Assembly (NCBI GenBank): GCA_021157815.1
Contig: JAGGVT010000096.1
Span: 9,335-73,334 of the forward strand
From: a bacterium
GTDB lineage: Bacteria > JAJVIF01 > JAGGVT01
Direction: 5' to 3'
DNA: 64,000 nt
Shown piece by piece: positions 990 to 64,000 of the stretch. Under the pieces are notes generated by a model. That model made no database searches. It saw only the letters and a list, made by a program, of their open reading frames with translations, and was not told the DNA's origin. The translations under genes were made by a program, and so were the position numbers. Numbering within the stretch: position 1 is the first letter of the stretch; every line of letters starts with the position of its first letter.

Positions 990-1178
990 TCGTGGCGACC
1001 TCGTCCCGGGATACTGCCATTATTCAATATTCATGCCATTTGACACCGGTAACTGCCAGTATTTACTTTGTCATGTTTGTTTTCTTTAATGTATAGTGCT
1101 ATAATTTTTGTGATATACAGGGGTGCGATAGGTCTTCTTGTTTGTCTCCAAATCTCTTAGGAATTAAGGAGTTAACGA

Positions 1179-4100
1179 TGCAAAACTCCATTCGTTTTTT
1201 TATAACAGCAATGGTCATTACAGCCCTGCTTTTTGGTTGTTCAAGCGGTGGGAAAAATCCGGTAATGCCGCGTGATCCCGGTGACGGCAATGCAACCCCG
1301 GAACTACCGCTAGTCAGTGACACCCTTGATGATGTATTGAATCCTGAAAGGAATTTTGATGATCTCCCTGCTGCGGAATTGGGTACAATTCGAAACACAT
1401 TCAACGCTCTAGGCACAATGGGCGCGTACGAGTTATCACTGGACGCTGATTCCATGTCCGCTGAGCTTATTTCAATTCGTACAGCATCGCTTGGTGAGAG
1501 CTTTCTTGTATCAGGCGCCAGTTTCTTCACAGTCCGACCATGCATCGACTGCCTGAGAATTGAATCAATCGAATTGACTCCTGAAAATACAATCCTTGTT
1601 CAATTCGCCGTCAGGCATCCTTTTGAAAAAGGCGTTAAGACCGAACCGGCATCAGCGCTGAATCGTCTTGATCTGGATGTTTTCGACCTGGCGATTGTCA
1701 TAGTGCCATACAGCGCGAGTTACAAATCCTTCCCTCTTCTTGATGTCAACGCATATTCGAAACTATGCCAGAATGTTGACGGTTTCACCAGGGAACTCGC
1801 GGATTTAACTCACAACCCGCATGCCTGCCCCTATTATCTTGTTGTTGACGAGTCTGGTTTGGATGAGCACGACTACAACAGATTCGAAATGGGCACAACG
1901 GATGTACTGGTTCCGGCTTATTTCGCGGCAAATGGCAAGTTCAGGATTTACCTGACAATGGGTTACGGCGCGAGCGCTGATTTCACAACACGGCTTAGCC
2001 CGGTCTATTACAACCCTGAGTTCAACCGCAAATCCGCGTGGAAAGTCGAAGTAATTCCGCCTGAGGGCGAAAACCCTCCCGCATTAGGCAACACGTGGAA
2101 TGAGATTGATACATCAACGACTTACGACGTTACAATAAAAGTATATGACTGGCAGCAAAACGCGACAGTGGCGACCAAATATCCTGATTATGAAAACCGT
2201 GACCATATCTATGCTTCATCAAAAGTCAAACGCGTTACAGCTGAAGTTATGAATATGACAAATGATTTGAGATGGGAGTACACACCGGTAAGCGGCGATG
2301 GTTCCCCTCTTGACCCGTTGATTTACAAAGTGAAAATAGCAAATGAAAAAGGGCTTTCAGCCGGAGAACATTTCGGGCTTGTCAAAGTAAGCGATGAACG
2401 GCATCCGGCGTTAGCCGCCGATGTCGGTACGATTGACTCTCTGGTGCACAGTCCTGATGGAGGTACGCTGTATTGGAACACGATACCTGAATTCGCGACA
2501 TATCAGATTTTCACAGCGACTGTTGTTCCCGGTGACGGCATCACTGTCATACATCCAAACGGCGGTGAAACATGGGGGATTAGCTCATCGCAGACAGTAA
2601 CATGGTCATCGACGGGTACAATCGCAAATGTGAACATCGAACTTTCTCTGGACAGCGGCAGCAATTTCACAGTTCCAATCGCCAATACCGTTCCGAATAC
2701 AGGTTCATTTATCTATAATCCTGTTGGGAATTTCCCCACTGAAAATGCGAGAGTAAGGATTTACAATTCGCTCGACGCTACCATCGTTGATGAATCGGAC
2801 AACGATTTCACAATAGAGGATATCCAGGGGCCAATTCAGGTAATCACGCCAAACGGCGGCGAAATCTGGGCTAAAAACACCCAGCAGAATATTACATGGA
2901 CTGCCGATGCTGATATTACCTATGTCAGGATTTATCTGTCCATGGATTCCGGCCTGAGTTACACAATTCCAATCACCGGTTCAACGCAAAACGATGGAAT
3001 CCATCAGTGGAACATACCGGAAGAAGCCATTGGAATTAATAACAGAATTAAAGTGCAAAAACTCACAGATCCGTTGATTTTCGATGAAAGCGACGCTGAT
3101 TTTCAGGTTGTTTGCCCGGTACTTAATCCGCCAGCGAGTGTTACAGCCTCCGATGGCACATATAATGACAAAGTCTCCGTTTACTGGGATGAAGTCGCAG
3201 GAGCATCCGGATATGATATCTACCGCGATAATGTACTGCAGGTTGCCAATCATCCTGCATTATCATGGGAGGATGTCGCTGTTGTTCCCGGAACCATTTA
3301 CAATTATCAGATTGCATCAATAAACTCCTGCGGAGCCGGCCTAAAGGGGCCCGCCGACCCGGGTGAACCCGGAAATGCGTGTGTTTTACCCACATCGCCA
3401 ACCGGAGTAAGCGCGACTGATGGCAATTTCCCCGATAAGGTAACAGTTACCTGGAACGCCGTGGCAGGTGTAACCGGATACAACATCTACCGCGATTCCA
3501 TTTTGCAGCAGGGCAATTACACATTGCTTACATGGGATGACACATCAGTAACTCCGGGAGTGATATACAACTACCAGGTTGAAGCGTTTAACGGTTGCGG
3601 AACAAGCGCCAAATCTCCCGCCGACCCGGGCGAGTCCGGACATGCGTGTGTTCTGCCGGATTTCCCAACCGGTGTGGACGCGACTGATGACGCTTTTCCC
3701 GACAGGGTTACCGTTTCATGGAACGTTGTGATAGGCGCGACCGGTTACGATATCTACCGCGACAGCGGACTTGTGCAGGATGATTTCGTTGGATTAACAT
3801 GGGATGACATGACTGTAGTTCCGGGAACAGTTTATTACTACCAGGTTGAAGCTGTGAATACCTGCGGTAACGGGGCAATTGCTCCACCTGATCCCGGCGA
3901 ACCCGGAAACGCGTGCGTTATGCCATTACCGCCAACCGGAGTAAGCGCGACTGACGGTAATTTCCCGGACAAGGTAACTGTTTCATGGAATGCTGCAGTC
4001 GGCGCAACCGGATACAATATATACCGCGATTCTGTTGTGCAGCTGGCAAACCATCCCGGCATAACATGGGATGACATGACAGTAACTCCGGGAGTGGTTT

Positions 4101-6268
4101 ACAACTACCAGGTTGAAACAGTTAACGGCTGCGGAACAAGCGCCCTGGCTCCCGTTGCCCCCGGTGAACCCGGCAATGCGTGCGTTCTCCCTGTCGCACC
4201 GGCGTGGATTACAGCATCGGATGGCACTTTCACAGACAGAATTCAAATCGACTGGGCGCTTGTTGCGGGAGCGACAGGATATAATATCTATAGGGATTTG
4301 AATCCGGTGCCTGTCGCAACGAATGTAGCCGCTCCAACATGGGATGATTCCGCTGTAAACATCTGTGAAAATCACGATTATGAGGCTTCCGCCGTTTCAG
4401 CATGCGGCGAGGGGCCCAAATCCGCCAGCGACACGGGTTATTCAGAGGAATTCCCTGCCGCTCCGACAGGTGTGAATGCAACCGATGACGCTTTTCCTGA
4501 CAAAGTTACCGTCTCATGGAACGCGGTAACTGGAGCGACAAGTTACGACATTTACCGCGATACAATACTTGTTCAGGATGATTTTGCGGGTTTGACATGG
4601 GATGACACGACTGTAACTCCGGGAACTATTTATAATTACCAGGTTGAAGCGGTCAACGCCTGCGGCAATGGGCCTATTGCGCCGGGAGCGCCGGGCGAAC
4701 CCGGCAACGCTTGTGTTTTACCAACAGACCCAACTGGAGTCGATGCGACTGACGGCACTTTCCCGGACAAGGTAACAGTATCATGGAACGCCGTTGGGGG
4801 AGCGACTGGATATAACATCTATAGGGATAGCGGACTGGTGCAGGCTAATCACCCCGGTATTACATGGGATGACACGACAGCAGTTCCTCCTGTTGTTTAC
4901 AACTACCAGGTTGAAGCGATAAACGGCTGCGGTGTCAGCAATAAAGCTCCTGCCGACCCGGGTGAACCCGGCAATGCATGCGAACTTCCGGATACTCCAA
5001 CCGGACTTGCAGCATCAGACGGTACTCACACTGACAGAGTTCAGCTCAGTTGGACCGCCGCTGCTGGCGCGCTGTCTTACGACATCATCCGAAATTCAGG
5101 TTTCCTGATTAATGTACCGGGAATAACCCATGACGACATGACCGCCACGGCGGGAGTGATTTACACGTACGAGGTTGAAGCGGTAAACGCATGCGGCAAC
5201 AGCCCGGCTTCAGCAGCGGATACCGGTTACGCTTTCGCTTGCGCGGCTGATACAAACGATACATGTGGAACAGCTGATCAAATGTTTATGAACAATTTCG
5301 TAACGGGACACTCCGTATCAGGATGCGTTGACATGATTGATGAGGACTGGTTTTATGTGTATGCTCCTCCAAATGGAATTACAGCGGCAAGTACAATAGA
5401 CATCACAATGCCATCCGGCACGCTGGATATTGAAGTTTATGGAATCGACCCGGGCGGAACATGCCCCGGAGCGCTGATTACATCGCAAACCAACATTGGA
5501 ACAACAACAGTTAATGTTCCAGCAAGTTCGTTAAGCCTTCTCTACATTAAACTGATAGGCAACTCCGGAGAGGTCAGTTACACAATGGATTTGGATCTTG
5601 CCCCATGGATAACAAATATGCCTGTTCAGGTGTGTGTCGCGACCGATGACGGCACACCCGGCGGCAACTGGCCATACGACGGCACGAATTACCTTGATCT
5701 TGCACGACTTAACCAGATGATAACATGGGCTAATAATTTCTGGCATCAATATGGTTATAACCTCAATTGGGATGGCTCCACTGTAACAATCATGGATTGG
5801 ATCTATTACAATCTGGATAATGGCGCGGAAGTCAACGCAATGCACACCGCTTATCATACTAACAATCTGCTAACTCTCTACTGGGTCAACCAGCTTGATC
5901 CACCGCATAATACCGCGTACTGCAGGTGTTATACTCCTGAATCAGCGCATAATGTAAATAATGTCTTCACCGCCTACAGTCCGAATGTGTGGACATGGGA
6001 ATCGGTTGTTGAACATGAGAACGGTCATGCGATGGCTTATTATTTCGATGAATATCTATATAATGCCGGCGGATGCGCCTGCGGAGACAATGGCTGTCTC
6101 GGCTATGTTCCGTGGCTCTACTGGTGCGATAATGGCTGTTACAACGGCAACCTGATGTATTACCATCAGATGGGCTGGACATGGGATTTGTTTAACCTTG
6201 TTAACGGCCAATGGCAGCAGATAAATGAATTTAACTTTAACAATCCAACCAATTATCCGTGGTTCTGA
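1179..6268 (+). CDS. Giant surface lipoprotein: family N-terminal module, 2 beta-sandwich repeats, 8 tandem Fn3-like repeats, PPC domain and C-terminal HEXXH-containing region
   Basis: AGGAG RBS then ATG at 1179. Signal peptide ending in lipobox LLFGCSSGG. N-terminal motifs RPCIDC, RHPFEKG, NRLDLDVFDL, EFNRKSAWKVEV, YDWQQN are shared with paralogs. Repeats with GYNIYRD/YNYQVEA/NGCG occur 8 times. DEDWFYVY...LDIEVYG looks like a pre-peptidase C-terminal (PPC) domain. HENGH is present near the C-terminus. Confidence 0.9.
3110..5230 (+). repeat. Coding tandem repeat, about 270-285 bp period x8 (Fn3-like units), high DNA identity between units
   Basis: Repeated DNA blocks such as ccaaccggagtaagcgcgactga..ggatacaa(c/t)at(c/a)taccgcgat recur at about 3400, 3660, 3940, 4470 and 4740. 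The protein shows 8 units ending in Y(D/N)IYRD. Confidence 0.8.
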
Positions 6269-29399: not shown

Positions 29400-30377
29400 A
29401 TGGTTGTTCAACTGATTATAACGATTATTCTTGCAGCGGGAATATCATTCCTGGTAACTCCGCGACTGATTCACTTCTGCCACCAGAAGAAACTGCTGGC
29501 AACCCCAGATGGTCGCCGTAAGCATGAAAAACCGATTCCAAACCTGGGTGGCTTTTCTATATATATAGGATTCCTTTTTGCGCTCCTGGTAGCTTTCCCA
29601 TTTTTATCTGATTCCCTCAAACAATATCCCTCGTTTATATTCGGAATTCTCGGAACAGTAATCGCCGGCGGATTGTGTTTTATAATGGGGCTTTTTGATG
29701 ATCTCTTCGAGCTCAAAGCCGGCACAAAAATCCTTTTCCAGGCGGCGATTGCCGCATGCCTGGTTATCTTCGGAGTCAGAATCGGATTCATCAGCAGTCC
29801 CGGCGATGGCATGATATTTCTCCCGATGTGGATATCCGCGATAGTAACAATTTTCTGGGTTGTCGCCGTGATGAACGCTATCAACTTCAGCGATGGCCTG
29901 GATGGCCTTGCGAGCGGAATAAGCCTGATAGCCGGAATTGTTTTCCTTGTGATTGCATTATCGCGCACCGAACCTCTCAAAGCGGAGGTTCCGGCGTTTC
30001 TGTCCGCCGCGATGATTGGCGCGATTGTCGGATTTCTGCCGTTTAATTTCCCAAAAGCGCGCATTTTCCTCGGCGATTCGGGAAGCCAGCTGCTCGGGCT
30101 TCTCCTCGCGACAATCTCGATTCTCGGAGCGTTCAAAGGGCCCGTACTAATCGCGGTTGGAATTCCAATTCTCGTTCTCGGCATACCGCTTCTCGACACA
30201 TCCCTCGCGATTCTGCGAAGAAGCATCAAAGGCAAAAAGATATACGAACCCGATGATGAGCATCTCCATCACGCGCTTGTAAAAAAAGGATTCACCCCCA
30301 TCCAAACTGTTCTTATTCTTTGCGCGATAACCATTGTCCTTGGCGCTGTAGCGATTAGCGTATCGGGTTGCAATTAA
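29400..30377 (+). CDS. Glycosyltransferase family 4 (MraY/WecA/TagO-like) UDP-HexNAc:polyprenol-P HexNAc-1-P transferase
   Basis: DDLFELKAGTK, NAINFSDGLDGLASG, LGDSGSQLLG; polytopic membrane protein. Confidence 0.9.
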   Translation: MVVQLIITIILAAGISFLVTPRLIHFCHQKKLLATPDGRRKHEKPIPNLGGFSIYIGFLFALLVAFPFLSDSLKQYPSFIFGILGTVIAGGLCFIMGLFDDLFELKAGTKILFQAAIAACLVIFGVRIGFISSPGDGMIFLPMWISAIVTIFWVVAVMNAINFSDGLDGLASGISLIAGIVFLVIALSRTEPLKAEVPAFLSAAMIGAIVGFLPFNFPKARIFLGDSGSQLLGLLLATISILGAFKGPVLIAVGIPILVLGIPLLDTSLAILRRSIKGKKIYEPDDEHLHHALVKKGFTPIQTVLILCAITIVLGAVAISVSGCN

Positions 30378-30419: not shown

Positions 30420-30485
30420 GTCAACTAAGATTAGTCCGTTGATCTTATTTACCATTTTGTCAACTAAGATTAGTCCGCTGATCTT
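30420..30485. promoter_or_regulatory. Two direct 27-bp repeats (GTCAACTAAGATTAGTCCGYTGATCTT), each internally palindromic; candidate operator upstream of 30597
   Basis: Exact duplication 39 bp apart, about 110 bp upstream of the BNR lipoprotein start; aagat..atctt dyad inside each. Confidence 0.4.
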
Positions 30486-30596
30486 AATTGACATATCTCA
30501 CACAACCAAAACCACGATTAAACTATCCCAATAAATGATATATACTGTGGAGGATTACCTGACTTTTACCAATCTCGATTTCGAGTGTAATTGAAC

Positions 30597-33443
30597 ATGC
30601 ATAAAACATACACCATTCTTATCTGCCTTACATTGCTAATCATCCTGATCGGATGCTCTAAAGACGCATCGCCACTGGCTCCATCCATGACAAATGGCGT
30701 TTCGCCGGAATTCAATCCGCAACTGGCTGTCAGTGATTATGCCCCATCAGGAATCATCTCCGGCGGAATGAGCGCACTGGGACTGTATCAGGCTCACATA
30801 AACACTGACACTTTATCCGGAGAATTAATCCCTTTTAGAACATCCGCGTTAACCGATTCACTCGAAATCGTGGATATCACAAATTTCCTCACAATGGCTC
30901 CATGCGTTGACTGTGTCAAACTCGACTCAATCGGCCTCGATGCGAAAGGAAACATCTCACTAAGAATCGGGATAAAGCACCCATTCGACGCTCCCGATTT
31001 GGAGGGTGAAATATCCGGCGCAAATCGCGCCGACCTGCATATTTTCAACATCGAGGGCACAATAATCGGCGACAGCGGATTGCCGTTTGAATTCACCGAA
31101 CTCGGCGAAACAATCGACTCCTTCCGTCTTATCAACGCTGACGGCTACTCGAAATATCTCGACCAAACTCTGGAAACCGTATTCCCATCAACCGCGACAA
31201 TCCACCCGTATATCCTTCACTTCGATGACTACACCCTCGGCAATTTCGATCCCGCATCGGCAACCGGTTTTTCCGATGTCATCACACCAACCGGAAACCT
31301 TGTCATGGCGATGGGTGCGGATTACGATTTCAAAAACTATGTTTTTTCATACCCGTCAGGCGGCAATCTCGATTTTATCTTCGCGGTTGGATGCTCCTTT
31401 GGGGTAAGTGTCGAATCATGGGAAGGTCGTCTGGAACCGGAATACAGAATACCGCAGTTCAACAAAAAAGCCGCGAGTGAAATAGATGTCAGAGTAACCG
31501 ACTGGAGTTTCATCGCAGGCGATACCGAATCAACGGTATCAATCGAGGTCGATGTCATGGATATCAACCACGGTGTTGCTGTCGGCGAGGCTCTGGATGA
31601 AATGGCGCATGACAGTTCAGTTGCTCAAATCGCTCTGGACATCCCCGGATTCCTCCTTGAGCAATTTTCAGCCACCGACCCGGAACCGAAAAACACAATC
31701 GACCATGTCAGAACCGACCCGTACATATTTGAAATCACACTTACCAACACAGCCGGCGGAACTCAGGCGGCATATCCAGCGCTTCTAAAAGTAACAGACT
31801 CATATCCGCCGGCATCGAACACTCATCCTTATCTTACTGGAATGGATGGTCTTGCGCGCATTGAACCCGGCGCATCATCCACTTTCGACAGCCTTTTTGT
31901 AATTGATGAATTCGCGACATATCTCGCTTTCATACTCGCCGAACCCGGCGCAGAACCAACATGCCAAATCACAACCGACCCATCTCCGGCGGAAGTCGAA
32001 CAGGGAACCGCGATTGAATTTGACGCTTCCGGGTCAATCGATGACGGTATAATCGAAACCTACGAATGGGATTTCGACTATGACGATGTTACTTTCAATT
32101 CCGAAGCATCAGGCGCGGTTATAAGCAGATTTATCTGCGTTCCCGGAACTCACACTGTCGCAGTCAAACTCACAGATGATGAATTGGATTCAAGCATCTG
32201 CACCGTTGATGTCACAATCACCGCCGATGACGGCGCAATCGAGGGTTTCGCCGCGGATCAGAAAATCCTTGGCGCCACTTCACTGGAACCGTTTATCCTG
32301 AACACATCGAACCGCGCAATCGCCGCGTGGAAAAACAATCTCTACATCGTGATGAACAGCAACCTTCCAACAGACGCATCCGAAAATATCTTCTTCATGC
32401 GTTCAACGGATTTGGGAATCACATGGGAAACTCCCATTCAGCTGACATCATATCCAGCCGCTGATGAAGCATGGGCAAGGGAAGCAAATCTGGCTATTGG
32501 CAAAAACACAGGTGATATTTTCATCCAGTTCCAATCCGACTGGAAAAGCTACGACGCGACCGGCAATTACAAATACGACGTTTTCTTCACGATGAGTTCC
32601 GATGAGGGCGTAACATTTACCGGCCCGGTTCAGGTAAACGATGACTCTCCGGGAGCATCCGACCAGCTTGCGGGTTCAATCGCTGTCGATGATTCAACCT
32701 CGCCATCGATAATTTACATCGCTTATGAAAATCGCGAAGATGCGAACGATTTTAATATCTTCTCAGCGACAGCATTATCAAATGACACTTCAACATGGGC
32801 AATCACTCAAATCGACAATGACACCGTTTTGAAATCGATGCACCCCGCCATTTATGTCAATCCGACCGACAGTTCAGTCAATGTCGCATGGGTTGACCCT
32901 GTAAATCTTGGCGGCACAGGGCAAATTCTGTTCGACCGCTCAATCGATAACGCTGCAACCTGGGGCGATGACATCAGTATTTTCACCGTTTCATCAAACA
33001 ACGGCCCATTCGAAACCTGCCTCGCAATCGCGCCATCAAGCGGAATCCCGGGCGTTATCTGGCGCGATGTTGACACCGGCGACTCCACATGTTTCCACAG
33101 ATTCGCCATAGCCGAATCCGCAGACGGCGCCACATGGACAGCGCCTGTAAATCTCACCGATGGCGGAACGAAATACTGCTGGTCGGGAACTCTCGATGTT
33201 TCCTCCGATGGCCGATGGTTCGCCGTACTCGAGCAGGACATCACCCACGACACCGACTGGAAAGCCATGTTTACCGAATCATCCGACGGAATCACATGGA
33301 CAACTCCCGTTCAGGTCGATGATGAAAACAAGGTTTTCGGACTTTCAATGGTGTTGGATGACTGCAACACGGTGCATGTAATCTGGGGTGACGTCAGGGA
33401 AGACGGCGTAAACAACGAATTATTTTACGACTTCGGAAGTTAA
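30597..33443 (+). CDS. Surface lipoprotein family member: N-terminal family module, PKD-like domain, C-terminal BNR/Asp-box beta-propeller
   Basis: Lipobox ILIGCSKD. Motifs APCVDC, KHPFDAPD, NRADLHIFNI, IHPYILHFDDY, YRIPQFNKKAAS. YEWDFDYDDVTF (PKD). Asp-boxes STDLGITW, SSDEGVTF, SIDNAATW, SADGATW, SSDGITW. Confidence 0.9.
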   Translation: MHKTYTILICLTLLIILIGCSKDASPLAPSMTNGVSPEFNPQLAVSDYAPSGIISGGMSALGLYQAHINTDTLSGELIPFRTSALTDSLEIVDITNFLTMAPCVDCVKLDSIGLDAKGNISLRIGIKHPFDAPDLEGEISGANRADLHIFNIEGTIIGDSGLPFEFTELGETIDSFRLINADGYSKYLDQTLETVFPSTATIHPYILHFDDYTLGNFDPASATGFSDVITPTGNLVMAMGADYDFKNYVFSYPSGGNLDFIFAVGCSFGVSVESWEGRLEPEYRIPQFNKKAASEIDVRVTDWSFIAGDTESTVSIEVDVMDINHGVAVGEALDEMAHDSSVAQIALDIPGFLLEQFSATDPEPKNTIDHVRTDPYIFEITLTNTAGGTQAAYPALLKVTDSYPPASNTHPYLTGMDGLARIEPGASSTFDSLFVIDEFATYLAFILAEPGAEPTCQITTDPSPAEVEQGTAIEFDASGSIDDGIIETYEWDFDYDDVTFNSEASGAVISRFICVPGTHTVAVKLTDDELDSSICTVDVTITADDGAIEGFAADQKILGATSLEPFILNTSNRAIAAWKNNLYIVMNSNLPTDASENIFFMRSTDLGITWETPIQLTSYPAADEAWAREANLAIGKNTGDIFIQFQSDWKSYDATGNYKYDVFFTMSSDEGVTFTGPVQVNDDSPGASDQLAGSIAVDDSTSPSIIYIAYENREDANDFNIFSATALSNDTSTWAITQIDNDTVLKSMHPAIYVNPTDSSVNVAWVDPVNLGGTGQILFDRSIDNAATWGDDISIFTVSSNNGPFETCLAIAPSSGIPGVIWRDVDTGDSTCFHRFAIAESADGATWTAPVNLTDGGTKYCWSGTLDVSSDGRWFAVLEQDITHDTDWKAMFTESSDGITWTTPVQVDDENKVFGLSMVLDDCNTVHVIWGDVREDGVNNELFYDFGS

Positions 33444-33752
33444 CGAAAACAGCCTCGCCTAAGTCAGTTTCTTCAACAGCTCCTCACGGGTCAACATTGA
33501 TTTACCGATAAATAACTAGCACGGCTGGCACCACGGGTGTCCCTTTAATATACTATTGTATAACCTACGATTAAATTTGGTGCCGACTGCCAAAATGACC
33601 AAATTCTCACTTAACACACCAAAGATTCACAAGTCAATATTGATTTACCGGCTAATATTAAATATACTTTAATCTCTATTAATTGATGCAGTATCCTGAG
33701 GGTTCAACGGATCTATACTTTTCCACATTCGCTCAAACACGCGAGGTGACTT

Positions 33753-36569
33753 ATGAACCGCTTATCACTAATCTTCCCTGCCATTGCCTTAATCATGATT
33801 ATCGGATGTTCAAGCGGTGGAACTTCTCCTGTCGCACCCAATGAACAACTATCCAATACATTTACAAATGGAAATATCAATGCCGGTGTCAGCGAATACC
33901 TCCCGGATGGCAGCCCCGCCGGCGGTGTCAGCCTGCTGGGACTCTACAATGTCCATGTTGACACTGGAAACCTTTCCGGTGATATTGTTCCCGCGAGAAA
34001 CGGCTCGCTTGAGGATGTTCTTGAGGTGGTCGATATTAGCGGATTTCTGTCCGTCGCGCCATGTACCGACTGTGTCAAACTCCAGTCAATTTCATTAGAC
34101 AGCGATGGCAATATCGTCCTGAGCATCGGACTCAAACACCCGTTTATACCCGGCAATCCAGCGATGCCAATCACGGGGAAAAATCGCGCCGACCTGCATG
34201 TCTTCAATGTCGAAGGCGTAATTGCCTCCGATGGCGGAACCGCACCTATTGTCTTTTCATCCATCGGTGAAACAATCGGCAACTTTTTTTTAACCAACGC
34301 GGATGGCTACTCGCCGTATCTCGATGACATGCTCGACGACACCCTGAACACTGTCGCCACAATTCATCCGTATATCCTGCATTTCGACGATTACTCATCA
34401 GGCAATTTCTCCGCATCAAACCCGAACGGATTTCAAAGCGTAACAACCCCCGGCCCGAATGGCTGCCTTGTAATGGCGATGGGTTGTGATTACGATTTCA
34501 AAAATTACATTTTCGAATCAACAGGCGGCGCGGACATGGATTTCATCTACGCTGTCGAGTGCACGTACGCTGTATCCGCCGCGACCAGACACGACAGGTT
34601 CAATCCTGAATTCCGAATCCCGCAGCATAATAAAAAAGCCGCCAGCGAAGTTAAAATCGAAATCGCCGATAACGGTTTAATCGCCGGACTTGATACATCA
34701 ACCGCAACACTCCATGTAAAAGTTCTTGACTATAATCACGGAGTCGCGGTCGGGACAAACCTCGATGAAATGCTCGCGGATTCATCTGTTGGAAGCATTT
34801 CAATTGAAATCCCGCAGGTTACACTCACGCCTGTTATTGTAAATTCACCGGTTGAAATTAGCGGTGTCGGCAATGATCCCGCAGACCCGCTGACATACGA
34901 AATCGTTGTAACAAACACGGGCGCGGCGGATGAAGGCATCTACACCGGACTTGTGAAAGTGCTCGATTCCTATCCTCCCGGATTGAACACAAACGCGCTG
35001 CTGGACAACATGGACGGCATCGAACGAGTTGGGCCAACTGACAATCCTATCGAGGGCCTTTTCGACATTTCAGAATTCGCGGCATATCAATCATTTGGAA
35101 TCGAAGTTATCTCATCAATTCCAAACTGCGTGATTGTAACCGACCCCGACCCCGTGGATATCATTCAGGGAGACCCAATCCAATTCGACGGCAGCGGTTC
35201 ATCCGCGACCGGTTCCTCCACATTGGTTTCTTACGAATGGGATTACGATTATGACGGCATCACTTTCGACATTGACGACACAGGCGATATTGTGAATCCC
35301 TCTCTCTGCGAACCCGGAACAAGGGATGTCGCCTTGAGAGTTACGGATAACCTTACTGAATTCTCAATCTGCACCGTTCCAATCACTATCACAGATTCAT
35401 ACCCGACAACCGGATGGGGAACTGACACCCCGATTGCATCATCATTGCAGGGATTTGTTCTGAACACAGGGCAAAGAGCGATCCGCATTTACGGCGATGA
35501 CCTGTATGTTTCTTTCTACACTGTAACAAATCCAAGGAATGTTTATTTCGTTCGATCAGAAGATATGGGAGCAACGTGGGAAACTCCGGTTCAGGTTACC
35601 ACCTATACTGCTCCAAACGGTGAACGAACCGAGGGCTGCAATCTCTGGATCGATGGCAACACGGATGATATCTATATTGGTTACAAGAGTCAGGCACCCG
35701 ATATTACCTTTGACTGTTATGTAACAAGAAGCCAGGATCGAGGCGATTCATGGGCAACTCCAGCTAAAGTAAACCCGAATCCACCGGGAGGCAGCAACCA
35801 GCATCACGGTGGAATTGTCATCGATGACAGCGTTGACCCGTCGCGCATTTATATCTCATATTCCGACCAAATCGTTCTGAGCAATTACGACATCATCGTT
35901 GCGACAACGACAACTGATGACTGGCAGAACTGGACATATCACACTATCGATGATTCCGCTACTGACTCTCATCAACCAAGCATCTATATCAGCCCGGTTG
36001 ACCAGTCTGTTAATGTCGCATGGTCTGATCCAATTAACTATGGCGGCACTGGAAATATTCTGTTTGACCGCTCAACCGATAACGGCGCGACATGGGGAAC
36101 AGATGTCGTTGTTTTCACTCATACTGGAAATTACGGGCCTTATGAATCCGCACTGGTTATCCAGCCCCAAACAGGCATACCCGGAATTCTGTGCAGGTAC
36201 ATTGACGAATCTGTTCCATCATATGTTCATGGTTTTTTCAAAGCCAATGACGCTCAAGGATCATCATGGGCAGCTCCCGTTGAATTAGCGGAAAACCCAA
36301 CCGGATATACCTGGGCAGGCGCACTTGAGTGCACCGCCGATGGCCACTGGTTCGCTGTTTTAAAGGAAGCATTCCCCTCATATCAGATGCAATTCACTGA
36401 ATCATACGATGACGGCATAACATGGGAACCATTCACAAAGCTTGATGATGCAGTGGGGTATTATTCATTCAATCCTCAGATGGCGCTTGACAGGTGCGGC
36501 ACGGTGCATATTGTCTGGGCTGACCGTCGAACAGGCAGCTACCAGATAATGTACGATTCCGGATCGTAA
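33753..36569 (+). CDS. Surface lipoprotein family member, tandem paralog of 30597..33443 (PKD plus BNR propeller)
   Basis: Lipobox IIGCSSGG; APCTDC, KHPFIPGN, NRADLHVFNV, IHPYILHFDDY, FRIPQHNKKAAS; YEWDYDYDGITF; Asp-boxes SEDMGATW, SQDRGDSW, STDNGATW, SYDDGITW. Confidence 0.9.
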   Translation: MNRLSLIFPAIALIMIIGCSSGGTSPVAPNEQLSNTFTNGNINAGVSEYLPDGSPAGGVSLLGLYNVHVDTGNLSGDIVPARNGSLEDVLEVVDISGFLSVAPCTDCVKLQSISLDSDGNIVLSIGLKHPFIPGNPAMPITGKNRADLHVFNVEGVIASDGGTAPIVFSSIGETIGNFFLTNADGYSPYLDDMLDDTLNTVATIHPYILHFDDYSSGNFSASNPNGFQSVTTPGPNGCLVMAMGCDYDFKNYIFESTGGADMDFIYAVECTYAVSAATRHDRFNPEFRIPQHNKKAASEVKIEIADNGLIAGLDTSTATLHVKVLDYNHGVAVGTNLDEMLADSSVGSISIEIPQVTLTPVIVNSPVEISGVGNDPADPLTYEIVVTNTGAADEGIYTGLVKVLDSYPPGLNTNALLDNMDGIERVGPTDNPIEGLFDISEFAAYQSFGIEVISSIPNCVIVTDPDPVDIIQGDPIQFDGSGSSATGSSTLVSYEWDYDYDGITFDIDDTGDIVNPSLCEPGTRDVALRVTDNLTEFSICTVPITITDSYPTTGWGTDTPIASSLQGFVLNTGQRAIRIYGDDLYVSFYTVTNPRNVYFVRSEDMGATWETPVQVTTYTAPNGERTEGCNLWIDGNTDDIYIGYKSQAPDITFDCYVTRSQDRGDSWATPAKVNPNPPGGSNQHHGGIVIDDSVDPSRIYISYSDQIVLSNYDIIVATTTTDDWQNWTYHTIDDSATDSHQPSIYISPVDQSVNVAWSDPINYGGTGNILFDRSTDNGATWGTDVVVFTHTGNYGPYESALVIQPQTGIPGILCRYIDESVPSYVHGFFKANDAQGSSWAAPVELAENPTGYTWAGALECTADGHWFAVLKEAFPSYQMQFTESYDDGITWEPFTKLDDAVGYYSFNPQMALDRCGTVHIVWADRRTGSYQIMYDSGS

Positions 36570-43217: not shown

Positions 43218-44069
43218 TTAGTTTTTCACATCAATACCGAACAGTTTTGCCGTGTTTAAACCAAGAATCTTTTCTTTGTCAGATTCCGAAATATCAGCAT
43301 AAACAATTTTCCCCACCTGCGGAACAGGCGATATAAACGGCACATCGGAGCCGTAGAGAATCCGTTCAGCACCGACCTCGCGAACCATCATCTCGATTAC
43401 ATCGGGATAAAGCCGCGATGAAGCCGTATCGAGATAAACATTCGGATGCTTTTTCGCGACCTCGATTGCCTCAAAAACGCCGTCATATTCCCCGCCGGTG
43501 TGCCCAAGAATGATAATCGCATCCGGATAATTCTCGGCAACCTTGTTAAAAAGCGATGGGAGGCAGTAATCGCAAATCGGGTCGTAATACCTCATGCTGT
43601 TCCATGTGTGTATTAAAACAGGCGCTTTGTGTTTCGATGAAAACTCCCAAACCGGATTGTAACGCGCATCATCACCGGCAACCTGATCGCAATAAGGATG
43701 GATTTTAATCCCCTTGAATCCGTGCTCATCGAAACAGCGATTGAGTTCGTCATCGAGGATATCAGCGTAATTCGCATTAACTCTGGCGTATCCGACAAAC
43801 CTGTCGGGATATGATTTGACCGCCCCGGCGACAATATCATTGCCAAACGGAAGCCCGTTGCTGAACGAGCTGATAGCAACCTTGTTAATTCCGATTCTAT
43901 CCAGTCCGGCGACTATTGCACCTGCATCATCACCGCCGGGGATATAGAATCCATGGTCAGGCCCAAAATGTCCATGGCAGTCGAAGATGAAATAGTCATC
44001 TAAAGGTTTGCCATCGTTTGTTGTTTTTGTGAAGTAGTCCATTGAGTTATCCTTTTTAAATATTACCAT
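43218..44069 (-). CDS. amidohydrolase_2 (PF04909-like) metal-dependent TIM-barrel hydrolase
   Basis: FDCHGHFGP near the N-terminus, ILGHTGG, DTAS; lactonase/decarboxylase-type family. Confidence 0.7.
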   Translation of the reverse strand: MVIFKKDNSMDYFTKTTNDGKPLDDYFIFDCHGHFGPDHGFYIPGGDDAGAIVAGLDRIGINKVAISSFSNGLPFGNDIVAGAVKSYPDRFVGYARVNANYADILDDELNRCFDEHGFKGIKIHPYCDQVAGDDARYNPVWEFSSKHKAPVLIHTWNSMRYYDPICDYCLPSLFNKVAENYPDAIIILGHTGGEYDGVFEAIEVAKKHPNVYLDTASSRLYPDVIEMMVREVGAERILYGSDVPFISPVPQVGKIVYADISESDKEKILGLNTAKLFGIDVKN

Positions 44070-44093
44070 GTTTTAGCATGGTGTTATCCAGTA

Positions 44094-46670
44094 TTAATCA
44101 ATTACAACGTACCCATCCTCGAATGAATATCCAAACTCCCTGTTACTGAATATTACCACCGTTACGCCGGGTGCAAGTATTCTCGCGCCGGATATATCCG
44201 ATTCTGTTCCTATCTCGAGAAGCAGATTGTTATGTGAAATCTCAATTGCTTCTATTGTTTCAAGCGATGAGAAAATCAACATGCCGTTGTATTCCAGGTG
44301 CGATGCGTTAATCAGAAGGACATCGAAATCGGGATTGTTTGCACGGACAACATGCGCCAAATCACCCTGGAATTTGTATTTCCCAAACGTGGCCATCTTA
44401 TTGGAGTTGCCCGTTTCGAGAAACACATCCGTTCTGTCAGGCAGTTCGATTTCGTAGCCATAGTTACGCCTGTGTGCCCTATCAATCCAGTCAGTTTCAA
44501 GCGTTTTGATTTCAATATCTGGAGCGTCTTTTCCCTCGTACGGATACAGCAAAACCTGGTATTGAACAAACGGCATCCGCGCCTGATGCAGTGAGATATA
44601 CGGCGCGTCATCCTTAACGCCATCAGCCGGTGTCACCATAGGCCCGGTTTTTTCATGGATCTCAACCTCATCCGCATTAAGCGGAATAAGCGCAAGATTG
44701 GCATCATCATTGGAAGTGTCGATGCGTTTTGTTTTCTTATCAATCTTAAGTTCAGTCGGCTGGAAATGCGCAAGCCAGTCGAATGTATGATATCCGCTGG
44801 TCTGGAAACTCGCTTGATAGTACGCCGGTCCCGGCAGGAAATCGGTTATTATCCAATAGCCGGGTTTGACAAAAATCGCACGTCTATTGTGAAGCACGCC
44901 AATCCAGCGGTAGCCATCGCTCCAAGCATCCGTGAAATCGAATCTCTCGCCAGTCCACCATTGCTCGACACGGTTGTTAGTGCATTTTCGCTGGCTTCTG
45001 GAATCGACCCAAACTGTATTATGCGCGATTGTTTGCTTGTACCATCGCTTGTTTATATCCGCTTCATAAGGCCCGGTACGGCCGCATTCCGTACAAATCG
45101 GTTTGCCAAACGCGTGGATATTAAAGTTGCCGAAATCAGGATGCGAATGCCACGCCTCATCCCAGCCGAAATCAAGGAACATATACGATGAATTTTTATC
45201 CCATGAATTGCGCATCACAACCCAGTCAGAATCGGGAAGATGAATTGATTTATATGGCGGGATCTGCGCCTTGGTTTTATTGTAGGCGTCAAGCGCTTGT
45301 GCGGTATTCTCGCACTGATCATTTGCTATCCTTTCAACATCATCCGGGTACCACTCAGAAAATTCTTTCAAGATTGGATTCGCAAATTCAAGCGCGCCTT
45401 CGATTATCGTGCCCTTGATTAGATAACCGTCCGGACCAATTCCGCCATCGCCGACAGGAACACCATTGCCTGCAGGCGGCATTATCTTGACCATGGATAA
45501 ATACATCGATTCCCATTTTCTATAACAATCCTCCGGTATCTCTCTTCCCGTTTTGCGAATGATATTTACAGTCCTGCGATACTGGTCAATAACACCGGTC
45601 GCATAGTTGACCGAATTCTCGATATGAGTGCCGTCATCGTAGGTATCGGTAATCATGTGCTCCTTGAAAAGTTCCCATGAAGGCTCAATCCAATTTTCTG
45701 AATCGTTGAACTCCGGGAAATACGCTCCGATTTTAATCAGCGCCTCGCACTGGCATGTCTGCCAGTTGCCCGGCATAAAGACATCGTTGCACTTTTCCAG
45801 AAATTGCGCATGTTCAAGAATCGATTTGTAGAAATTAATATTTCTTTCCTTGTCGAGATTCAATTCACCTGTTTTTGCAAGCCATCGTTCTGTGTCGCAC
45901 ATATGAATTGCGGTACCGCCTGCGCCAAGCGTTCGCCAGTATGGCAGCCAGACAAAACCGATATACGCTTTCGGCCGTTGAGCGGGCGGACGGTACGTTT
46001 CATACCAGTGAGAGAACATCTCAAGCCACGCATCGGCGTATTTCCTGTCATTTGTGTGTATTGCCGCGCGTTCGAGAACACGCATCAACCCAAAAAGTGA
46101 ATACCTTTTTCCGGGAACGCATGCTGGGAAATCGGGATCTTTGATAATCTCGTCAGCGTCTATTACCGCGGCTTCACCCGCTTCTTTTGTAATCGGACAA
46201 AGCTTCAACTGATTCGGCCTTGGGCGTTCAGACTGATATATCAAATATTCATCCCGCGCTTTTGTGAAATCACGCGAATCAACCGCTGCCTTCACTTTCT
46301 CAAGTCCCTGATGGTTCAAATCCACGGTGGAAAAAAAATCTTTATCCGTCATTATTGGACAGGTGGGCGTGTAGTCGTATTCCGCTTTGTATCGCTCGAC
46401 AAAAGTATTTGTATAGCGGTATTTGCTAAGGAGTTTGACATCCAAATTGACATCCGAATCAAATTCAATTGACGGGTCATCCACGTACGTTATCTCCGAT
46501 GGCTCATACGGAGAAATTGCCTCCGGTGGAACAGGCACCTGCGCCATGTCAACATACGCCATCGTGTTGGGAACTTCATTCTCCCGTGAAGATTTATCAT
46601 TATCGGAATCCACTGGGCAACCACAAAAAATGAAGGATGCCATTATTAGTAGAAATGCAAATCGTGCCAT
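44094..46670 (-). CDS. heparinase II/III-like polysaccharide lyase family protein (secreted), paralog 1
   Basis: Signal/lipobox FIFCGC. WDEAWHSHPDFGNFNIHAFG matches the H.H.D...F Hepar_II_III motif. Large alpha-rich N-domain with NWQT. Start reassigned to ATG at 46670 (AGGAG RBS), 11 bp after the upstream gene stop. Confidence 0.75.
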   Translation of the reverse strand: MARFAFLLIMASFIFCGCPVDSDNDKSSRENEVPNTMAYVDMAQVPVPPEAISPYEPSEITYVDDPSIEFDSDVNLDVKLLSKYRYTNTFVERYKAEYDYTPTCPIMTDKDFFSTVDLNHQGLEKVKAAVDSRDFTKARDEYLIYQSERPRPNQLKLCPITKEAGEAAVIDADEIIKDPDFPACVPGKRYSLFGLMRVLERAAIHTNDRKYADAWLEMFSHWYETYRPPAQRPKAYIGFVWLPYWRTLGAGGTAIHMCDTERWLAKTGELNLDKERNINFYKSILEHAQFLEKCNDVFMPGNWQTCQCEALIKIGAYFPEFNDSENWIEPSWELFKEHMITDTYDDGTHIENSVNYATGVIDQYRRTVNIIRKTGREIPEDCYRKWESMYLSMVKIMPPAGNGVPVGDGGIGPDGYLIKGTIIEGALEFANPILKEFSEWYPDDVERIANDQCENTAQALDAYNKTKAQIPPYKSIHLPDSDWVVMRNSWDKNSSYMFLDFGWDEAWHSHPDFGNFNIHAFGKPICTECGRTGPYEADINKRWYKQTIAHNTVWVDSRSQRKCTNNRVEQWWTGERFDFTDAWSDGYRWIGVLHNRRAIFVKPGYWIITDFLPGPAYYQASFQTSGYHTFDWLAHFQPTELKIDKKTKRIDTSNDDANLALIPLNADEVEIHEKTGPMVTPADGVKDDAPYISLHQARMPFVQYQVLLYPYEGKDAPDIEIKTLETDWIDRAHRRNYGYEIELPDRTDVFLETGNSNKMATFGKYKFQGDLAHVVRANNPDFDVLLINASHLEYNGMLIFSSLETIEAIEISHNNLLLEIGTESDISGARILAPGVTVVIFSNREFGYSFEDGYVVID

Positions 46671-46680
46671 TGTTTTTCTC

Positions 46681-49233
46681 CTAGTTAATGATAATGAACC
46701 CATCTTGCATGTTAACTTTTTCCTGTTCGCCATTGATTATAACCTTGTTCACACTACCAGCAACTATCTTGACACCTGATAAATCGGATTCGCTTGTTAT
46801 GCTCATTTTGGCTCCATTAACACTTATTTCAAGCGCTTCAATTGCTGCAGGAGCTGAGAATATAAGGATATCATCAATCATTAGATAATCGGCATTAAGT
46901 AGAAGAAAGACTGTTTCGGATTTTTCAATGTCACTAAGAAGCGCGATATCGCCGCGGAATTCATAATCGCCGAATTTAACTTTCTTTGTTGCATCGCCGG
47001 ATTCCATGAAAATATCTTTTCGGTTTGAGAATGATATTTCATAACCAACATTCTGCCTGCTGACACGGTCAGCGAAATCCGTTTCAAGCGGCGTGATTTC
47101 AATTTCAGGCGCGACTTTTCCCTCGTAAGGAACAAGCAAAACCTGATACTGCTTGAACGCCAATCCCTCCTGATGCAGGGAAATGTAAGGAGTTTCTACC
47201 ATTCCATCCGTTGTTGACATCGGGCCTTTGCTTTTATTAACGACAATGTCCTCATGGTTAAGGGGGACAAGCGCGATATTGGCGTCAGGATTCAGCGTAT
47301 CAATACGCTTTGTTTTACTGTCAATATTAAGTTGAGTCGGCTGGAAATGCGCAAGCCAGTCGAATTCATGATATCCGCTGGTCTGGAAACTGGTTCCGTA
47401 ATAGGACGGTCCCGGCAGGAAATCCGTGATAATCCAATAGTCGGGTTTTGAAAAAATTACTCGACGGTTATGCTGAACGCCAATCCAGCGGTAGCCATCG
47501 CTCCAAGCGTCAGTGTAATCAAAATCATCCGATGTCCACCACTGCTTCAGAGTGTTAGTCGTGCATTTGCGCATGCTTCGCGAATCAATCATGACAGTAT
47601 TATGCGCGATAGTCTGCTTGTACCATCTTTTTGATACGTCAGCCTCGTAAGAACCAGTCCTGCCACATTCAGTGCAGATTGGTTTTCCGAATGCCCAAAT
47701 ATCGAACGAGCCAAAATCGGGATGCGAATGCCACGCCTCATCCCAGCCGAAATCGAAAAACATATACGGCGATTTCTCATCCCACGATTCACGCATAACT
47801 GACCAGCCTGTGTCGGGCAGGAGAACAGAGGTAAATGACGGCTCTTCTGATTTGATTTTGTTGTATGCCGCAAGCACTTCATCAGTATTGTCAAACTGCT
47901 CGTTCGCTGTTTTGATAACATCATCGGGATATCGCTCGGCGAAATATTTCATTGCAGGGTCATTAAATTCAAGTGCGCCTTTTATAATCGCGCGTTTGGT
48001 GAAACTGCCATCCGCTCCGATACCGCTATCACCGCATGGAACATAATTTCCCGTCGGCGGAACTATCTTAACAGCCCATAAATACATGGTTTTCCACTTT
48101 CGGTAGAATTCATCGGGGATAAACATCCCGAGTTTTCGTACGAGCCTGACTACAGTGCGGTATTCATCCATAACACCGGTAGCGTAACCGACTGAGTTTT
48201 CGCAGTGAGTGCCGTCGTTATAGGTTTCCTTTACCATGTGCTGTTGCGACATTTTCCACGCGTGTTCGCACCAGAATTGCGATTTTTTAAACGATGGGAA
48301 ATAACCGCCGATTTTCATAATCCCCTCGCACTGGGCGGTCTGCCAGTTGCTGGGCATGAATACATCATTGCATATATAGAGATATTCAGCATGTTCCAGA
48401 ACTGATTTATACAAATTGAATATTTTATCTTTGCACAATTTAGGGTTATCAATCTGCGAAAGCCATCGTTCAGTTTCAGGCAGGCTTCTAGCCGGGCCTG
48501 AGGCACCAAGTGTACGCCAATATGGCATCCAGATAAAGGAGATATACGTTTTGGGCCGCTGAGCTGGCGGGCGATATGTTTCATACCAGTGGTTGTACAT
48601 TTCAAGCCACGCTTCAGCATATTTAATATCATCCGTGTGGATATACGCCCGTTCGAGATAGTACATCATTCCCCATAATGAGAAGTACATCCCCGGCCTG
48701 CAATCCGGGAATTTGGGGTCTTTCATAATCTCATCCGCTTTCTCTACAGCAGCCTCGCCTGCTTCTTTTGTAACAACCCGTTCTTTAAGCTGGTATTTTT
48801 TATCGCGCTTCGCCTGATATGACAAATACTCATCCCGCGCCTTTTGGAAATCACCAGACGTAACCGCCGCCTTAACTTTCTCAAGGCCTGGATAGTCCAG
48901 ATTAACCGCCTCGAAAAATTCCCTGTCCGACATCTCCGGCTTGGTGGGAGTATAGCCGTATTTCGCTTTCCACTTCGCCACAAATTCGTTGGTGTAGCGA
49001 TACTTGCTGAAAAGTTTTACATCCATGTTCCAGTCGGAATCGAGTTCAATCAACGGCTCATCCACGTAGGTGATTTCCGTTGGTTCAAATGGGGACAATG
49101 CCTCCGGTGGAACAGCTACAATCTGCCCGCCATCGGCATAATCCATCGTGTAGTGAACATCCTTTTCCCTTGATAGTGAAAATCCGAAGAAAATAATCGA
49201 TGCAATAAAAAGGGCTATAGCTGTTCGAGTCAT
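46681..49233 (-). CDS. heparinase II/III-like polysaccharide lyase family protein (secreted), paralog 2
   Basis: Signal peptide; WDEAWHSHPDFGSFDIWAFG; about 60% identical to paralog 1 along the full length. Confidence 0.75.
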   Translation of the reverse strand: MTRTAIALFIASIIFFGFSLSREKDVHYTMDYADGGQIVAVPPEALSPFEPTEITYVDEPLIELDSDWNMDVKLFSKYRYTNEFVAKWKAKYGYTPTKPEMSDREFFEAVNLDYPGLEKVKAAVTSGDFQKARDEYLSYQAKRDKKYQLKERVVTKEAGEAAVEKADEIMKDPKFPDCRPGMYFSLWGMMYYLERAYIHTDDIKYAEAWLEMYNHWYETYRPPAQRPKTYISFIWMPYWRTLGASGPARSLPETERWLSQIDNPKLCKDKIFNLYKSVLEHAEYLYICNDVFMPSNWQTAQCEGIMKIGGYFPSFKKSQFWCEHAWKMSQQHMVKETYNDGTHCENSVGYATGVMDEYRTVVRLVRKLGMFIPDEFYRKWKTMYLWAVKIVPPTGNYVPCGDSGIGADGSFTKRAIIKGALEFNDPAMKYFAERYPDDVIKTANEQFDNTDEVLAAYNKIKSEEPSFTSVLLPDTGWSVMRESWDEKSPYMFFDFGWDEAWHSHPDFGSFDIWAFGKPICTECGRTGSYEADVSKRWYKQTIAHNTVMIDSRSMRKCTTNTLKQWWTSDDFDYTDAWSDGYRWIGVQHNRRVIFSKPDYWIITDFLPGPSYYGTSFQTSGYHEFDWLAHFQPTQLNIDSKTKRIDTLNPDANIALVPLNHEDIVVNKSKGPMSTTDGMVETPYISLHQEGLAFKQYQVLLVPYEGKVAPEIEITPLETDFADRVSRQNVGYEISFSNRKDIFMESGDATKKVKFGDYEFRGDIALLSDIEKSETVFLLLNADYLMIDDILIFSAPAAIEALEISVNGAKMSITSESDLSGVKIVAGSVNKVIINGEQEKVNMQDGFIIIN

Positions 49234-49294
49234 TTTTATGTCTCCTTAACAATTATGAGACAGGCTATAAAAGCCTCTCCCGATGGCATTACAA

Positions 49295-50032: not shown

Positions 50033-50101
50033 AATAACCTCTTGTTGTTATAACATCATTTTAAATCTTTGAAGCACCACGCTAAAGCATGGTGATATTT
50101 C

Positions 50102-51499: not shown

Positions 51500-51534
51500 T
51501 TGTGTATGTCCTTTTTACTTTCCTGAGAGATAAA

Positions 51535-54350: not shown

Positions 54351-54362
54351 TTCATTTCTCCA

Positions 54363-62777: not shown

Positions 62778-62977
62778 TTTGACTTTCTCGATGGTTTTTG
62801 CTATATAACATATAACTTGTGGATGCAAGGGAAGATGGTTAAAGTCCATCGCGGTCCAGCCACTGTGTTGGGCACATTATTGAAGTCCAGATAATTGCCC
62901 TAAGCCAGAAAACCAATTCACAGGTTGAATGTACAGCTTCTTGGATTGGGCTTCGCATTCATTGGATATTCTCCTTT

Positions 62978-63054: not shown

Positions 63055-63999
63055 ATGCGCTATTTATGTATTTTTATCACCATGATGATTTTCATCATGC
63101 TTTTTGCCGCCGGTTGTTCGAGAGATGCAAATCCGCTTGTCCCTTTACAAAATCAAGCGGATTCCGATTTAATGCCTGTTGTCAGATATGATAACATCAG
63201 CGCCACTGGTTTGTTCGGCGTGTACTGTTTATCAATCTCGCCTGATTTTGCATCCACTGAATTGGTTCCGATGCGCAATTCCGCTATTGGAGAATCCTAC
63301 ATCGTTTCTGGCGCGGGTTTCTTCACAGTTTCACCGTGCGTTGATTGCTTGAAAATCAAGAGCATCGCATTGGATGAAAATGGGAATGCCGTTCTTGAAT
63401 TTAAAGTGAAACATCCGTTTGAGAAAGGCGACCCTCTCAAGCCGCCAACCGCGGTGAATCGTCTCGATTTGGATGTTTTCGACCTTGCGCTTGTTATCAA
63501 GCCAATTGAAATCACGCCTGATATCTATACACAAACGGATATCAGCGCCTACACGGGCATAATGAAAAACGCGGACGGCTTCACATGCGAACTGAGCGAT
63601 GTTGTGGATGATGACGTTGTAATGCCGTACAAAATATGCTATGAGGATGAAAATAACAACCGTTTTGAAATGGGCACTGACTATCAGTTATTTGATGTCA
63701 TCCTGTCGCCCGGTTCAGGTTTGTTGTTTGATGTCTATCTAACGATGGGTTACGGCGCGAGCGCGAAAAAACCTGAAAGGCTCGTTCCGACATATTATGT
63801 GCCGGAGTTCAACAGGAAAGCAGCATGGAAAGTGGAGGTTATTCCCCCTGAGGGAGATAATCCGCCGGAGATCGGCAACACCTGGGATGATGTCGAAACA
63901 ACCGTTGAATACACGGTAACTGTTGATATTTATGATTGGAATCATGGCGCAGTAATCGCGACAGATTTCCCTGATTCCGACAATACAAATCACATTTAC
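63055..63999 (+). CDS. 3'-truncated member of the surface-lipoprotein family, closest paralog of 1179..6268
   Basis: GGAGG RBS. Lipobox FAAGCSRD. SPCVDCLKIKS, KHPFEKGD, NRLDLDVFDLALVI, EFNRKAAWKVEVIPPEGDNPPEIGNTW, YDWNHG. Runs off the window end. Confidence 0.8.
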   Translation, partial: MRYLCIFITMMIFIMLFAAGCSRDANPLVPLQNQADSDLMPVVRYDNISATGLFGVYCLSISPDFASTELVPMRNSAIGESYIVSGAGFFTVSPCVDCLKIKSIALDENGNAVLEFKVKHPFEKGDPLKPPTAVNRLDLDVFDLALVIKPIEITPDIYTQTDISAYTGIMKNADGFTCELSDVVDDDVVMPYKICYEDENNNRFEMGTDYQLFDVILSPGSGLLFDVYLTMGYGASAKKPERLVPTYYVPEFNRKAAWKVEVIPPEGDNPPEIGNTWDDVETTVEYTVTVDIYDWNHGAVIATDFPDSDNTNHIY

Positions 64000-64000
64000 G

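Follow-up and report, generated by a model that had tools for sequence, protein, structure and literature searches.

Lipoproteins that capture vitamin B12 in Bacteroides are regulated by cobalamin riboswitches, and BtuG, a β-propeller, is encoded at loci that are under B12 riboswitches. BtuG and BtuH (for the latter, PMC8941943) are B12-binding lipoproteins of the Bacteroidota. Other propeller proteins are recognized by their Asp-boxes, hairpins with the sequence S-x-D-x-G-x-T-W that link the third and fourth strands of a blade. These boxes are structural, take no part in ligand binding, and are found in 5-, 6-, 7-, and 10-bladed propellers of widely differing function (PMC2716378). The GH33 sialidases are among them: their catalytic propeller is six-bladed, with an Arg triad, a Tyr/Glu nucleophile pair, an Asp acid/base, and an F/YRIP motif at its start. 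The window analyzed here is a 64,000-nucleotide stretch of a bacterial contig (JAGGVT010000096.1, positions 9,335 to 73,334 of the forward strand; assembly GCA_021157815.1). It carries three genes, called A, B, and C in what follows, whose products are all named “exo-alpha-sialidase” in GenBank. They belong to a family in which a constant N-terminal module (the N-module) is joined to interchangeable C-terminal domains, the Asp-box propeller being one of these, and the sialidase names are not supported.

A constant module joined to interchangeable C-terminal domains

Gene A (30591..33443, plus strand; NCBI MCD6217429.1) encodes 950 residues when read from a TTG codon; the alternative ATG start at 30597, chosen by gene callers and by NCBI, gives 948. 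Its lipobox Cys codon is at 30654-30656, and this is followed by the all-β core of the N-module (N-core, 30708-31460), an immunoglobulin (Ig)-like part (31461-31955), a PKD domain (31956-32225), and the Asp-box propeller (32226-33440). Gene B (33753..36569, plus strand; 938 residues; MCD6217430.1) has the N-module at 33879-35123, the PKD domain at 35124-35396, and the propeller at 35397-36566. An initial annotation of this DNA had called A and B tandem paralogs with a shared module, a PKD domain, and Asp-boxes, and pairwise alignment bears this out, with 45% identity from end to end (E = 0). By domain, the identity is 0.55 in the N-core, 0.41 in the Ig-like part, 0.47 in the PKD domain, and 0.43 in the propeller. 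The same annotation placed a third paralog on the opposite strand. Gene C (20744..23365, minus strand; 873 residues; MCD6217422.1) does have the module and the propeller, but it is divergent and the PKD domain is absent, and the window in fact holds five members. Over A residues 66-455, C is 28% identical to A (E 7e-37), with a weaker match in the propeller; domain by domain, the identity is about 0.31 for the module and 0.26 for the propeller. The lipoboxes of A (LIGC-S) and B (IIGC-S) fit the pattern [LVI][ASTVI][GAS]C, while that of C (VWSC-S) is atypical. PKD domains are β-sandwiches of about 85 residues with a WDFGDG-like motif, and the assignment here is confirmed by a Pfam PKD_4 score of 27.2 against a cut-off of 27 and by a match of the family profile to the PKD domain of collagenase ColH at 1.7e-18. 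A and B are functional genes under purifying selection, since the ratio of nonsynonymous to synonymous substitution rates (dN/dS), taken against orthologs in a related metagenome-assembled genome (MAG), is 0.09-0.19 for each of their mature domains. In the short signal peptide and linker, the same comparison gives 0.24-0.43. The B ortholog is 89-96% identical by domain, with a dN/dS of 0.10-0.15.

The N-module, about 415 residues long, is made up of the core of some 250 residues and the Ig-like domain, and is the constant part of the family members. The first 455 or so residues of A have no match in Pfam or NCBIfam, the module has none in the PDB by sequence or by profile (PDB matches being confined to the PKD domain), and literature searches found no description of the family. 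When 1.84 billion representative proteins were searched exhaustively with phmmer, 521 members, counted as 50%-identity clusters, were recovered at E <= 1e-3. The module is N-terminal in every one of them, starting around residue 40-60. The N-module has a mean pairwise identity of 51-57%. Its residues C105 and C108 (in PCxDC), H130, R146, D148, D324, S342, N386, and D403 do not vary in any of the 176 full-length members, in which many further polar residues are more than 93% conserved. Recurrent motifs are PCxDC, KHPF, RxDLHVFNxEG, HPYxLHFDDY, and YRIPQxNKK. Of 174 members examined for a lipobox, 130 have one, and in 121 of those Ser is at +2. The N-module, which has no counterpart in Pfam, NCBIfam, or the PDB, makes a good candidate for a new domain family.

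The module is usually followed by a PKD spacer and then by a C-terminal domain of about 400 residues, which varies. Homologs are about 40-48% identical to A up to roughly 55% of the protein's length, after which they diverge completely. Pfam searches with representatives find the N-module and PKD domain fused to propellers of the Kelch (P0024), PQQ_2/BamB-like (P0026), SBBP (P0083), and LVIVD (P0103) types, to a right-handed β-helix with DUF5123 (P0061), or to extra PKD domains (P0013); in A and B, the fusion is to a BNR_2 propeller. When the C-terminal regions of the 176 members were clustered all against all, 18 remained singletons and the others formed at least 17 clusters of more than one member, the largest of them, with 35 members, being the BNR type. 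The initial annotation had taken BNR propellers as a usual mark of glycan-active or glycan-binding proteins, but the propeller does not define these proteins, being one of at least 17 C-terminal types. The N-module of B is 58-61% identical to those of β-helix, PQQ, and other non-BNR members and only 50% identical to that of A, and the nearest N-module neighbor shares the C-terminal type in only 97 of 150 proteins. The histories of the N-module and of the C-terminal regions thus disagree, and therefore A and B are not a recent duplicate and the C-termini have been exchanged within the family. A recent tandem duplication, which the divergence between the two copies might have revealed, is further contradicted by the N-modules of A and B, which are as distant as those of any two family members, and by A orthologs that have no neighboring B at two other loci (L035 and L036). 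The architecture is thus that of a cassette, with a constant N-module joined to interchangeable C-terminal domains. It is this cassette architecture, the N-module itself, and its expansion to at least 44 copies that are undescribed in the libraries and literature searched, Asp-box propeller lipoproteins being in themselves ordinary.

In a scan of one genome per GTDB species, 26 loci were found, of which 25 come from the MAG SRR22302362_metabat2_46 (CBDURE01, an uncultured bacterium). The loci of this MAG contain 44 distinct family open reading frames, nine of them consecutive on a single 45.6-kb contig, and at one locus (L001) an A ortholog, 92% identical over the N-module and PKD domain, is followed by the B ortholog. 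Two N-module genes, 46% identical to A's module, are also seen on a 14.8-kb contig binned as Nanoarchaeota (L014, JAHIRU010000001.1), which is probably a mis-binned bacterial contig. A hidden Markov model (HMM) of the family, built from the 176 full-length members, identifies the five members in the window: A (9.3e-172), B (3e-187), C (7.5e-90), E (3e-76), and F (9.5e-64). Gene E (1142..6268, plus strand; 1708 residues, likely start ATG 1175) has a divergent N-module followed by fn3 repeats, and its lipobox is LFGC-S. Gene F (63055..64000, plus strand), also with a divergent N-module, is incomplete because the window stops within it. In other assemblies that cover this region, it encodes 850 residues with an SBBP-type C-terminus and is followed by a sixth member, G (865 residues, β-helix); the contig from which the window is taken thus carries six. 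A more remote relative is gene D (23914..25971, minus strand), a lipoprotein with a C11 (clostripain-like) peptidase domain (Pfam Peptidase_C11, 2.9e-31). Its N-terminal 300 residues or so are remotely homologous to the N-module (hhalign probability 94.8%, E 5.4e-8, 246 columns; E 4.9e-5 against the family HMM), in a degenerate form from which the Cys and His motifs have been lost. In a distant relative (L036), a C11 peptidase (13691-15733) and, following it, three divergent family members adjoin the A ortholog. PADLOC gave no match and PHROG no relevant one, and no relative was found on viral contigs; an association with phages or defense was therefore rejected.

The Asp-box propeller of A and B

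Asp-box hairpins are found in both A and B. The initial annotation counted four or five boxes per protein, and B indeed has four strict ones, at residues 602, 660, 774, and 884. A has two strict boxes and one loose one (605, 669, and 784), and reaches five only when two boxes that are one residue short, SADGATW at 843 and SSDGITW at 897 (both read from the sequence), are added to these. The structure predicted for A residues 537-950 (predicted local distance difference test 89.6; predicted template-modeling score 0.90) contains, according to DSSP, seven groups of four strands; in blades I, II, IV, V, and VI, an Asp-box comes after strand 3. When this model is compared with known structures, the highest score is obtained for the CylK propeller (36.7, with 342 residues aligned), followed by GH145 (31.0), the lectin BP39L (30.1), and PL42 (29.4); integrins, WD40 proteins, and other propellers reach 24-29, and the six-bladed sialidases 24.6 (rank 51-52). 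The CylK domain is seven-bladed (PMC8916777), and PL42 is presented as seven-bladed as well (PMC8377490). Foldseek lists many sialidases, at E values of about 1e-11, but with template-modeling (TM) scores of only 0.46-0.56, the best TM scores (0.61-0.64) being those of GH145 and PL42 enzymes. The model thus resembles seven-bladed propellers and not the six-bladed catalytic propeller of GH33.

The residues of the propeller point in the same direction. Among 13 BNR-type members, D663, D760, D923, and D934 are invariant, R936 is the sole invariant Arg, and there is no invariant Glu; H929, Y709, and Y712 are each present in 12 of the 13. Neither the Arg triad nor the Tyr/Glu pair of GH33 is conserved among these sequences, and the propeller of A is modeled as seven-bladed. 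The matches are not confined to non-enzymatic BNR families, which the initial annotation had named as a sign against its reading: the structural neighbors are enzymes (CylK, GH145, PL42) as well as lectins, integrins, and WD40 proteins. With phmmer, the propeller has no match to a sialidase among all PDB sequences at E <= 10, nor any sequence-level match to a solved structure, and NCBIfam gives no match. Against the Pfam BNR_2 cut-off of 31.4, A (32.7) and B (32.1) are marginal and C (20.3) is below. A homology search with the B propeller alone returned six weak matches and missed both B's own cluster and known BNR relatives, and is thus no measure of rarity.

The only Y/FRIP tetrapeptides are YRIP at A285 and FRIP at B287. 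They are not at the start of the propeller as in GH33 but inside the N-module, about 315 residues ahead of the first Asp-box, and are pieces of the family-wide motif YR[IV]PQ[HF][NL]KK, shared also by members whose C-termini are not of the BNR type. The initial annotation was therefore right not to take them as evidence for sialidase catalysis. Because no Arg triad is conserved and there is no sequence match, and because Asp-boxes are structural, the names that GenBank gives to A, B, and C are not supported and sialidase activity is unlikely. The three proteins, and by extension their relatives, have been named from their Asp-boxes alone, and a metabolic reconstruction based on such names would wrongly infer sialic-acid foraging in these uncultured bacteria.

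Proposed role and alternatives

Taken together, we favor a reading in which A, B, and C belong to a large, lineage-specific family of predicted envelope lipoproteins that would serve as a surface repertoire for binding or capturing varied ligands, and we put its probability at roughly 0.55. The lipid anchor and the N-module would hold the protein on the envelope, or dock it to a common partner; the PKD domain would act as a spacer; and the variable distal domain would supply ligand specificity, so that the family as a whole would serve capture or adhesion across a range of extracellular ligands. For A and B, a glycan is a plausible ligand. A carrier role of the N-module is favored because a degenerate copy without the Cys and His motifs precedes the peptidase domain of D, and because the C-terminal types are classic binding scaffolds. 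Several points weigh against this reading. Surface exposure and lipidation are predictions, and it is we who infer that A and B bind a ligand, which ligand this is, and that they bind it rather than act on it. The nearest fold neighbors of the propeller include real enzymes (CylK, GH145, and PL42). Finally, the conservation of the N-module exceeds what a passive stalk needs, and could reflect a catalytic or metal-binding role.

The alternative that survives best, unlikely as we judge it, is that A and B are carbohydrate-active enzymes with a catalytic seven-bladed propeller like those of GH145, PL42, and GH74, engaged in extracellular glycan foraging together with a nearby heparinase II/III cluster. 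Most characterized Asp-box propellers are glycosidases (PMC2716378), and the invariant D663, D760, D923, D934, and R936, along with the nearly invariant H929, speak in its favor. The same window also encodes exported heparinase-like lyases and uronate catabolism. This lyase cluster (43218-60520, minus strand) contains three heparinase II/III-like proteins with signal peptides (44094-46733, 46681-49233, and 58010-60520, all minus strand), with an amidohydrolase_2 protein, an enolase-superfamily dehydratase, an FAA-hydrolase-family protein, a cyclase, a xylose-isomerase-like TIM barrel, and a GATase1-like protein, and it looks like a locus for the degradation of uronate polysaccharides. All of the cluster, however, is encoded on the minus strand and comes no closer to B than 7.5 kb, and in between are an ADP-ribosylglycohydrolase gene, three unannotated lipoprotein-like genes, and a DegT aminotransferase gene.

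Nor does the cluster travel with A. The gene order that does is Peripla_BP_2, a helix-turn-helix gene on the opposite strand, Glycos_transf_4 (WecA/MraY-like), and A, and this is kept in three species (window 27483-30377; L035 7127-9805; L036 7180-9786). The A orthologs in the two other species are 56% and 53% identical to A, and neither lyases nor a copy of B are found alongside them. An operonic link between A/B and the heparinase cluster was therefore rejected, and while the initial annotation correctly saw a lyase cluster, the glycan-foraging apparatus that it built from it is tied to A and B only by their presence in the same 64 kb. As a separate observation, the Peripla_BP_2 protein of this conserved order is a BtuF/FhuD-type binding protein. 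The sequence of the propeller does not help the enzymatic alternative either, as identity to GH145- and PL42-type enzymes is 10-12% with no sequence-level match, while lectins, integrins, and WD40 propellers score about equally in the structural comparison. In addition, the N-module carries many domain types that are not glycosidases.

Next comes the possibility, which we also consider improbable, that the N-module is itself the functional part, either catalytic or metal-dependent, and that the C-terminal propellers and β-helices only target it to substrates. Its very high conservation, including the CxxC, His, Arg, and Asp residues that are invariant in all 176 members, fits this possibility, as does the fact that the N-core is the best conserved part between A and B. 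The core is also covered by no known fold, so that an active site of a new kind is possible. Yet the copy attached to the C11 peptidase has lost these residues and has nonetheless been retained, which fits a carrier role better. Moreover, the module is situated beside the lipid anchor, where a stalk or a dock would usually be found, and it matches no enzyme family. Last, that A, B, and C are GH33 exo-alpha-sialidases, as the database names, the BNR_2 scores just over the cut-off in A and B, and the Foldseek matches would have it, is highly improbable, and was rejected on residue conservation, structural comparison, and the lack of sequence matches, with no sialic-acid catabolism genes seen in the window.

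Regulatory elements, surroundings, and known systems

The binding and capture reading also gains a hint from a regulatory element. A cobalamin riboswitch aptamer (62802..62963, plus strand) is found immediately upstream of F and on the same strand. It scores 34 bits with RF00174 (gathering threshold 31.5) and 47.1 with RF01482 (threshold 50), and it contains the B12 box GCCACUG. The element is also seen in L031, another contig that carries F, but no cobalamin riboswitch was found at 25 other family loci, so it was rejected as a family-wide trait. By analogy with the riboswitch-controlled lipoproteins of Bacteroides, its position suggests that F may be regulated by B12 and perhaps takes part in corrinoid capture. 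The riboswitch before F thus hints at the capture of a specific nutrient by one member or more.

Two repeated motifs are found near A and B. Between A and B, there are two copies of the 18-bp motif GTCAAYATTGATTTACCG (33490-33507 and 33633-33650, plus strand), and both are kept upstream of the B ortholog in L001 (4264-4280 and 4687-4703), although with a different spacing. In the window and in the five loci that bear this region, the motif is confined to the A-B intergenic region, and it could be a regulator site or a terminator or promoter element. Upstream of A, a 28-bp motif is present twice (30420..30486, plus strand) as the product of a 39-bp tandem duplication. With a single copy in L001 and none in L035 and L036, this local duplication was discarded as a conserved regulatory site.

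Other features of the window complete the picture. An IS200-like Y1 transposase gene (26472-27053, minus strand) separates the C and D genes from the Peripla_BP_2 gene, and several metagenome contigs carrying A and B stop upstream of Peripla_BP_2 or Glycos_transf_4, near this gene, which is consistent with a repeat breaking the assemblies. Directly downstream of C and on the same strand (16808-20323, minus) is a gene for a 1171-residue protein combining a Ser/Thr protein kinase, an AAA-like region, and many TPR repeats. The window has no rRNA or tRNA genes. The best named matches of a conserved aminotransferase are from WOR-3 (79%), Cloacimonadota, and Zixibacteria, to which they point only loosely. 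The host is possibly a WOR-3-like member of the FCB group.

A bolder proposal can be put forward tentatively, as possible but less probable than the repertoire itself. The N-module would be an undescribed envelope-docking domain (or a metal-binding or catalytic one), an uncultured FCB-group lineage would have dozens of cassette lipoproteins per genome, every one with its own propeller or β-helix, as an extracellular capture repertoire with an evolutionary origin separate from the Sus and Btu surface lipoproteins of the Bacteroidota, and F would be a new riboswitch-controlled corrinoid-capture protein. Hundreds of metagenomic protein clusters contain the N-module, and a single genome has at least 44 copies of it. 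With a constant head, swapped tails, and one member behind a B12 riboswitch, the family offers a concrete route to studying how these organisms interact with extracellular substrates.

Four kinds of described systems come closest to the family. Like A and B, GH33 sialidases have Asp-box repeats in the strand 3-4 hairpins of a β-propeller and are secreted or occur as lipoproteins, but they differ from the model of A in blade number, and from A and B in the conserved Arg triad and Tyr/Glu pair, and in having the RIP motif within the propeller, and they have no sequence-level similarity to A and B. The seven-bladed propellers of the CylK C-terminal domain (7RON), GH145 (5MUM and 5MUL), PL42 FoRham1 (7ESK), and the lectins BP39L and PLL are similar to that of A at the level of the fold, with 10-12% identity, and none of them is combined with an N-module and a PKD domain. 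Archaeal and bacterial surface proteins also combine a propeller with PKD, as the Methanosarcina surface-layer protein 1L0Q does with a YVTN propeller, but the domain order differs and there is no N-module. The surface lipoproteins with which the Bacteroidota capture nutrients (glycan-binding proteins of the SusE/F type, and BtuG/BtuH) have no sequence or fold match to the family and no counterpart of the N-module, nor is a gene for a SusC/TonB-dependent transporter adjacent here. What they share with the family is the way in which the proteins are built, lipid-anchored and all-β, with Ig- or PKD-like spacers leading to a distal binding domain.

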